DNA of 63,824 bases, counting the filler, from Thermoplasmatota archaeon (GTDB lineage Archaea > Thermoplasmatota > E2 > JACPAO01 > JAHFTW01): assembly GCA_041623215.1 (NCBI GenBank). It is 5 parts of 5 records of this genome, joined end to end, with 100 filler letters (N's around TTAATTAATTAA, not from the genome) between each part and the next. Parts side by side here need not be neighbours in the genome. Positions count along the whole stretch, not along the records: positions 13,942 to 27,767 come from JBFJXH010000042.1; 4 more parts are not named here. One strand, 5' to 3'. A program made the position numbers and the translations under genes. Below the pieces are notes generated by a model. That model saw only the letters and a list, made by a program, of their open reading frames with translations, was not told the DNA's origin and searched no databases. Below are positions 17,779-17,810 of this stretch, one piece after another; position 1 is the first letter of the stretch; every line of letters starts with the position of its first letter.

Positions 17779-17810
17779 CTTATACGCGCGCGCGCGTGCG
17801 CGCACGCGTG
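17779..17810 (+). promoter_or_regulatory. gyrB promoter: TATA box fused to a 30-bp alternating pyrimidine-purine tract; probably leaderless
   Basis: CTTATAC then (CG)6-TG-CG-CG-CA-CG-CG-TG ending in the GTG start about 25 nt after TATA. Confidence 0.7.

Follow-up and report, generated by a model that had tools for sequence, protein, structure and literature searches.

The gyrB promoter of this Thermoplasmatota archaeon carries a 30-bp purine-pyrimidine (R/Y) alternation, which is a real, rare and conserved promoter element. The best reading of this tract was that of a Z-DNA supercoiling sensor that would repress gyrase, and we considered this moderately probable. The analysis was performed on the window, meaning the whole stretch of DNA of 63,824 nucleotides, and on the assembly and related genomes. 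The features of the locus were as follows.

17033..17713, + strand: scpB, the upstream neighbour, given for context only (TIGR00281, at cut-off)
17774..17775, + strand: AA dinucleotide at -34/-33, a putative BRE-like position (sequence and family base frequencies)
17779..17784, + strand: TATA-like box CTTATA, first base 29 nt 5' of the GTG (genome-wide YTTWW peak)
17781..17810, no strand: 30-bp purine-pyrimidine alternation in the TATA-to-start spacer (longest of the assembly, conserved in the family)
17785..17810, no strand: 26-bp segment predicted to flip to Z-DNA (rank 1 genome-wide in the energy model)
17793..17808, no strand: perfect 16-bp palindrome with a 6-bp stem and a 4-nt loop, a by-product of the alternation (shuffle test)
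17797..17798, + strand: -11/-10 position, TG here against a TA step within the tract in the family, likely the basal WW promoter element
17808..19727, + strand: gyrB, likely leaderless, GTG start at 17808-17810 (TIGR01059, 1007 bits, over cut-off)
19879..22548, + strand: gyrA (TIGR01063, 1150 bits, over cut-off)

Rarity and authenticity of the tract

The sequence agreed with the sequence-only reading, which had described an unbroken alternation at 17781-17810 with (CG)6, a 16-bp palindrome and an end in the GTG codon. The (CG)6 was located at 17785-17796. The same reading had seen nothing comparable elsewhere in the window, and indeed this was the sole alternating run longer than 14 bp. In the assembly of 1.94 Mb, it was the longest R/Y alternation, and the runner-up was 18 bp. 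Runs of at least 16 bp numbered nine (five of 16 bp, one of 17 bp, two of 18 bp and the 30-bp tract). Three order-5 Markov simulations at genome length gave longest runs of 17, 20 and 18. Such tracts were therefore not common at random sites of the genome, and the energy model also placed this one first. In the case of (CG)6 alone, the length was unexceptional, with another 12-bp CG run in the assembly and runs of 12-13 in the simulations. A Z-DNA-forming sequence is expected to be a long CG-rich alternation with low B-Z energy, and the tract showed this with its 30 bp, its (CG)6 and its top rank.

The tract and its junction with gyrB were spanned without gaps by contigs from three of four public marine metagenome runs (one study), which differed at 3, 1 and 1 other letters. 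These contigs ruled out an assembly artefact as the origin of the tract.

Architecture of the gyrB promoter

YTTWW was counted upstream of 1903 candidate starts in the source genome, and its maximum was at -30/-29 from the ATG (32 and 28 counts, with mostly fewer than 10 outside -36 to -27). The gyrB promoter was likely leaderless because its box lies 29 nt before the GTG, at this genome-wide offset. In the family gyrB promoters, T at -28 and A at -26 were present in 30 of 30, in an alignment anchored on this very box. A was the commonest base at -34 (11/30, tied with C) and at -33 (17/30), and an AA-type BRE has been described (PMC2151090). T was found at -11 in 20 of the 30 promoters and A at -10 in 18. 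This position also had the highest AT share (0.56 at -10) in 106 leaderless-like promoters, and haloarchaeal promoters have a WW element at -10/-11 (PMC2151090). The TA step at -11/-10 was likely kept as a requirement of the basal machinery. The gyrB promoter of the source genome had the box at -29, AA at -34/-33 and T at -11, but G at -10. Judged from these positions, it is likely a leaderless archaeal promoter in which the tract runs from inside the box to the putative start.

In relatives, the run started at the same TATA-like box and mostly stopped between -2 and +7, with the ATG farther downstream. This arrangement meant that the position of the tract followed the promoter rather than the start codon, and that its end inside the start codon was a peculiarity of the source genome. 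The GTG of gyrB aligned with the ATG of relatives, and GTG or TTG at the start position also occurred in family topA genes. An in-frame ATG at 17742 was rejected as the gyrB start because the GTG matched the starts of relatives and the leaderless offset. The genes smc, likely scpA, scpB, gyrB and gyrA formed a single same-strand run (window 13958-22548), in which smc at 13958-15937 was truncated by the contig start, just after the N spacer at 13842-13941, one of four such spacers between the contigs of the window.

Conservation within the family

A run of 16-40 bp was present in 28 of 30 family gyrB promoters (29 genomes), a count over kin that share ancestry and are not independent, and the 28 runs comprised 27 distinct sequences. 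The tract was thus kept in orthologous gyrB promoters while its letters changed. The 30 promoters included G022 twice, as well as L117 and L294, which are contig ends after scpB where gyrB was assigned by synteny. L023 and L025, whose contigs break off 5' of gyrB, and G030 and G031, in which gyrB had no match, were left out of the family set; in L025, 18 bp of the tract were visible at the contig edge. Changes inside the tracts were transitions only, a pattern partly built in by selecting the tracts on alternation, so the conservation argument rests on the 28/30 count. In comparison, the longest alternation among the other leaderless-like spacers of G000 (n = 106) was 10.

In 13 of the 29 family genomes, no alternating window of 22 bp lay outside the gyrB tract; in 10 the tract was one of a few such sites, and in 6 it was shorter or lost. 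For 23 of 25 loci of the family, the best Z site was found in the 250 bp that precede gyrB, against 1.9 expected by length. In G014 and G005, the promoter spacing was retained and the tract was lost. This loss was likely one event because the two are sisters in the GyrB tree. The assemblies of three relatives broke in or beside the tract, namely L117 (G004:C81 end), L294 (G009:C39 start) and L025. Owing to such breaks, the element may be undercounted in metagenome bins.

Distribution beyond the family

In a GyrB tree, genomes of the phylum of the source genome grouped with named Thermoplasmata records, in keeping with Thermoplasmatota. None of 21 loci from sister families and other members of the class had the tract, although six were GC-rich, in a sample of 21 of 29 same-order or same-class genomes. 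In the Methanomassiliicoccales clade, a GC-rich run of at least 12 bp was located upstream of the TATA-like box in 30 of 30 loci with enough DNA. The tract was also upstream of this box in most loci of families f14 and f20, and 15 loci with an acidic, halophile-like GyrB had runs of 10-18 bp there. In the second phylum, the best Z site was within 250 bp upstream in 15 of 15 acidic halophile-like loci vs 0 of 15 others, and the tract was absent in 15 of the 30 loci sampled. In five near-complete f10 genomes, the gyrB tract was one of 2-3 sites of at least 20 bp, the rest being at unrelated genes. In five halophile-like genomes, the tract was not unique, and in two of them it fell below the 16-bp pattern. 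Similar tracts occurred at gyrB in a number of GyrB-tree clades that are separate from each other. As the distribution is patchy and the side of the TATA box changes, the tract may have arisen or moved more than once.

The GyrB of six records with gut-bacterial titles (L084, L088, L097, L099, L102 and L107) was nested in Methanomethylophilaceae (support 91-96). They are likely mislabelled bins and were counted with the Methanomethylophilaceae clade. A second tract common to many relatives was rejected as regulatory, as it was coding sequence of an AlaX-type editing protein (L111-L116), an assignment from a family hit on one of six loci, under cut-off.

Predicted energetics of the B-Z transition

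A simplified B-Z model was used, with dinucleotide energies and a junction cost of 5 kcal/mol taken from PMC3024258. The values for the supercoiling constant, for helical repeats, for untwisting at junctions and for melting came from general background and not from this paper. As a single-run model at 37 °C, it gives a ranking and a rough threshold and is no measurement. At each of the sigma values -0.04, -0.05 and -0.06, no site of the genome ranked above the segment 17785-17810, and its model energy at -0.05 was -11.0 kcal/mol, compared to -6.2 kcal/mol for the next-best site. The predicted midpoint of the transition was sigma -0.030 with a 10-kb domain and -0.036 with a 3-kb domain, and at no point did melting compete. 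The flip was computed to take up approximately 5.5 negative turns. In the family tracts, CG made up 235 of 346 YR steps and is the cheapest step in the SIBZ table.

The predicted midpoint was near the plasmid sigma of -0.033 given for gyrase-expressing Thermococcus (PMC8643681). If free supercoiling were constantly beyond -0.04, the tract would be permanently flipped in the model. A search for Z-alpha domains gave zero matches in five genomes, but also zero in 14 controls.

Elements at other topoisomerase genes

R/Y tracts were found upstream of topA in only 2 of 23 bacterial-type loci, and an alternating tract was rejected as a general topA feature. These two loci, L131 (G022:C36) and L133 (G028:C37), had no topA hairpin and carried tracts of 15+25+15 bp and 13+29 bp. 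The distance from the end of the tracts to the TATA-like box of topA was about 35 bp, and the tracts were likely one event. In G028, the two 22-bp sites were those of gyrB and topA.

A hairpin with a TAC/GTA loop was instead present at 14 of the 23 topA loci of bacterial type and at 2 of the 5 of archaeal type (16/28 among L131-L159, with L158 left out for its missing topA start). It had perfect arms of 6-9 bp and an invariant loop (C-GTA-G on one strand), and was located about 25 bp upstream of the TATA-like box. The arms covaried in length and outer letters, and both orientations occurred. In G000, it was at C10:21164-21180 (L151), one of 8 such hairpins with arms of at least 7 bp in that genome. 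The 11-base core also occurred at unrelated places. The hairpin was not found in five sister-family loci (0/5), nor in the window with up to 3 mismatches allowed.

In phage N4, an early-promoter hairpin changes shape at about sigma -0.035, and in an E. coli promoter it caused shut-off until novobiocin was given (PMC4496689). The C-G closing pair and the G..A loop described there match those of the family topA hairpin. By its sequence, the topA hairpin would follow the N4 extrusion rule, but its fixed distance may also suit a protein site or a dimeric activator. Its support for a link to DNA topology was suggestive. In the window, 12354-12366 (CCCCC-GCA-GGGGG) formed a similar G..A triloop hairpin on a contig other than that of gyrB. 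It was located upstream of what looks like an A/V-type ATP synthase operon, a label from ORF reading.

In the case of top6B, no alternating tract was found in 5 of 5 loci. The word GGATGCA preceded top6B in 5 of 5 leaders (L339-L343), and GGGATG(C) was seen in gyrB leaders (L002-L029), at 21 of 27 loci in the family and 12 of 67 in the phylum. The latter motif was missing from the leaderless gyrB of the window. A regulator shared by type II topoisomerase genes is possible from these words.

Alternatives to a Z-DNA switch

The tract could be bound or cleaved by a protein that recognises B-DNA of an alternating or deformable kind, perhaps by gyrase or Topo VI, and this protein would repress by occupancy. 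Eukaryotic topoisomerase II favours alternating purine-pyrimidine DNA (PMC1920260), and a tract over the spacer or the BRE is where a repressor would sit. The GGGATG-type motif, at most 130 nt upstream of gyrB, and the word before top6B also hint at a shared trans-acting regulator. However, tract length ranged between 16 and 40 bp, and lineages differed as to whether the tract lay upstream or downstream of the TATA box. The gyrB of the source genome lost the leader and the GGGATG motif and retained the tract, and no tract of at least 12 bp preceded top6B in five of five loci. In comparison with a sequence-specific operator, 5 of 16 columns were invariant and 11 were variable in 21 same-phase tracts, while 7 of the 28 tracts had the opposite phase to the TATA box. 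A tolerant protein is compatible with these values. The variable columns and phase flips would fit DNA shape better than a fixed operator, and we regard protein occupancy as unlikely.

A hard-to-melt or mechanically tuned B-DNA spacer could set the output or the supercoiling dependence of gyrB with no flip to Z-DNA. The GC content of the gyrB spacer, 87.5% where the mean is 67%, placed it at the top of 106 comparable spacers. This resembles the G/C-rich bacterial discriminator, a GC-rich melted region that couples transcription to supercoiling and shapes its response (PMC8422995). However, alternation is unnecessary for GC richness, and the discriminator needs none. By this analogy, a GC-rich melted region alone would predict repression by relaxation, the opposite sign to the proposal for gyrB, and according to PMC8422995 the discriminator mechanism cannot account for gyr promoters that are activated by relaxation. 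Outside the family, some lineages have the tract 5' of the TATA box, away from the DNA that melts. A B-DNA spacer was thus a distinctly improbable explanation.

We gave very little credence to a neutral dinucleotide microsatellite or a functionless inherited leftover. The loss in one sub-lineage, the failure to find the tract in many others and the shared ancestry of related genomes would agree with it. In contrast, the flanks at -39 to -30 and +6 to +20 had zero invariant columns while the alternation persisted, and the tract started at the TATA box and mostly stopped near the putative start, which is not free expansion. It also marked the same gene in several separate GyrB-tree clades.

A cruciform, or an RNA hairpin in an smc-scpA-scpB read-through transcript, was highly improbable. 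The 16-bp palindrome and an RNA fold of -18.7 kcal/mol, a value that has no shuffle control, pointed toward it, as did scpB upstream of gyrB in 19 of 29 family loci. However, CG-rich alternations are nearly self-complementary by nature, and shuffles that preserved alternation within purine and pyrimidine places gave a mean longest palindrome of 16.1 (p = 0.58). Over the 28 family tracts, the mean palindrome was 11.6 vs 12.2 expected and the mean stem was 5.8 vs 6.0. Arms of 10 bp, the minimum for cruciform extrusion by calculation (PMC3834812), occurred in 1 of 28 tracts; the stem of the source tract was 6 bp. The cruciform and the palindromic operator were rejected, as the symmetry was no greater than the shuffles gave. 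In the case of the RNA hairpin, scpB was not found in seven family loci with about 1.5 kb of upstream DNA, where the tract was present, and in halophiles the genes for gyrase are reported to be divergent from those for Topo VI (PMC9348778). The sequence-only reading had offered Z-form or cruciform. The Z-form half was supported by the alternation conserved over changing letters and by the energy model, and the cruciform half fell with the lack of excess symmetry.

Proposed mechanism

The reading of the tract as a Z-DNA sensor can be set out as follows. In relaxed DNA, the spacer would be in B-form and the promoter usable. Free negative supercoiling past about -0.03 to -0.036, from gyrase or a departing polymerase, would flip the spacer to Z-DNA. 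TFB and RNA polymerase could presumably not bind a left-handed segment over -23 to +2, and the flip would soak up about 5.5 negative turns that otherwise help promoter opening. With initiation blocked, gyrase would likely repress its own gene, and relaxation would return the spacer to B-form and restore transcription. In lineages where the tract lies directly 5' of the TATA box, it is probably the BRE that a flip would disturb instead. The Z-form may also be bound by a helper protein. The dispensability of the element in some lineages counted against a Z switch.

Reportedly, an alternating R-Y box at the Halobacterium bop promoter, needed for its response to supercoiling, was described by Yang et al. 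1996. Like bop, gyrB has an archaeal promoter with the element adjoining the TATA box, and the supercoiling response, a predicted one for gyrB, is ascribed to non-B DNA. Unlike bop, which is stimulated by supercoiling and is no topoisomerase gene, the gyrB tract is predicted to be repressive. It is also 30 bp long, CG-rich and family-wide, and the effect of novobiocin on bop was strain-dependent.

In E. coli, transcription of gyrA and gyrB is stimulated by relaxation (Menzel and Gellert 1983, 1987, per PMC11894792 and PMC8422995). The gyrB tract would likewise place gyrase under the control of the supercoiling it makes, as proposed here from sequence. However, in the cited parts of these papers no cis-element was named for E. 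coli, with competing structural transitions as one possibility only, whereas the promoter found here is an archaeal one of the TBP/TFB type and holds a discrete tract that is conserved and Z-prone. Among the lineages considered, Halobacterium was the sole published case of gyrase transcription raised by relaxation (PMC3184054). There, novobiocin raised gyrA 3.4-7.5-fold and gyrB 1.6-1.8-fold, and topA and top6 were also induced about 2-fold, so the gyr induction was not specific. In H. volcanii, supercoiling is restored through gyrase (PMC11894792). The N4 hairpin inside a promoter follows the same logic as proposed for the gyrB tract, but it is read by the phage polymerase (PMC4496689), whereas the gyrB element lacked excess palindromic symmetry and is predicted to form Z-DNA.

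Among the matches listed in our literature search, none described a Z-prone tract in the promoter of a gyrase gene; Holmes and Dyall-Smith 1991 or Yang et al. 1996 may mention a haloarchaeal tract. Two Z-DNA surveys (bioRxiv 10.64898/2025.12.30.697008 and PMC4060949) did not mention gyrase in the cited portions of their main text, and evidence for Z-DNA in vivo in bacteria has been called limited (PMC13463272).

Significance for gyrase-bearing archaea

Archaea acquired gyrase from bacteria and had to wire the gene into the TBP/TFB system (PMC9348778). The gyrB tract appears to be a new variation on supercoiling-sensitive non-B promoter elements, with a function predicted from its sequence. A broader idea is more tentative, and we hold it to be somewhat doubtful: a protein-free Z-DNA thermostat may have evolved repeatedly in gyrase-bearing archaea, and its counterpart at the topA promoter of this family would be a mini-cruciform of the N4 type or, in one lineage, Z tracts. 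As the element is often alone of its kind in the genome, and as the loss variants G014 and G005 and a halophile counterpart exist, a few point changes suffice for testing. If the thermostat reading is true, no natural and conserved switch of this kind, with Z-DNA regulating a prokaryotic promoter, would have been described before within the literature searched.
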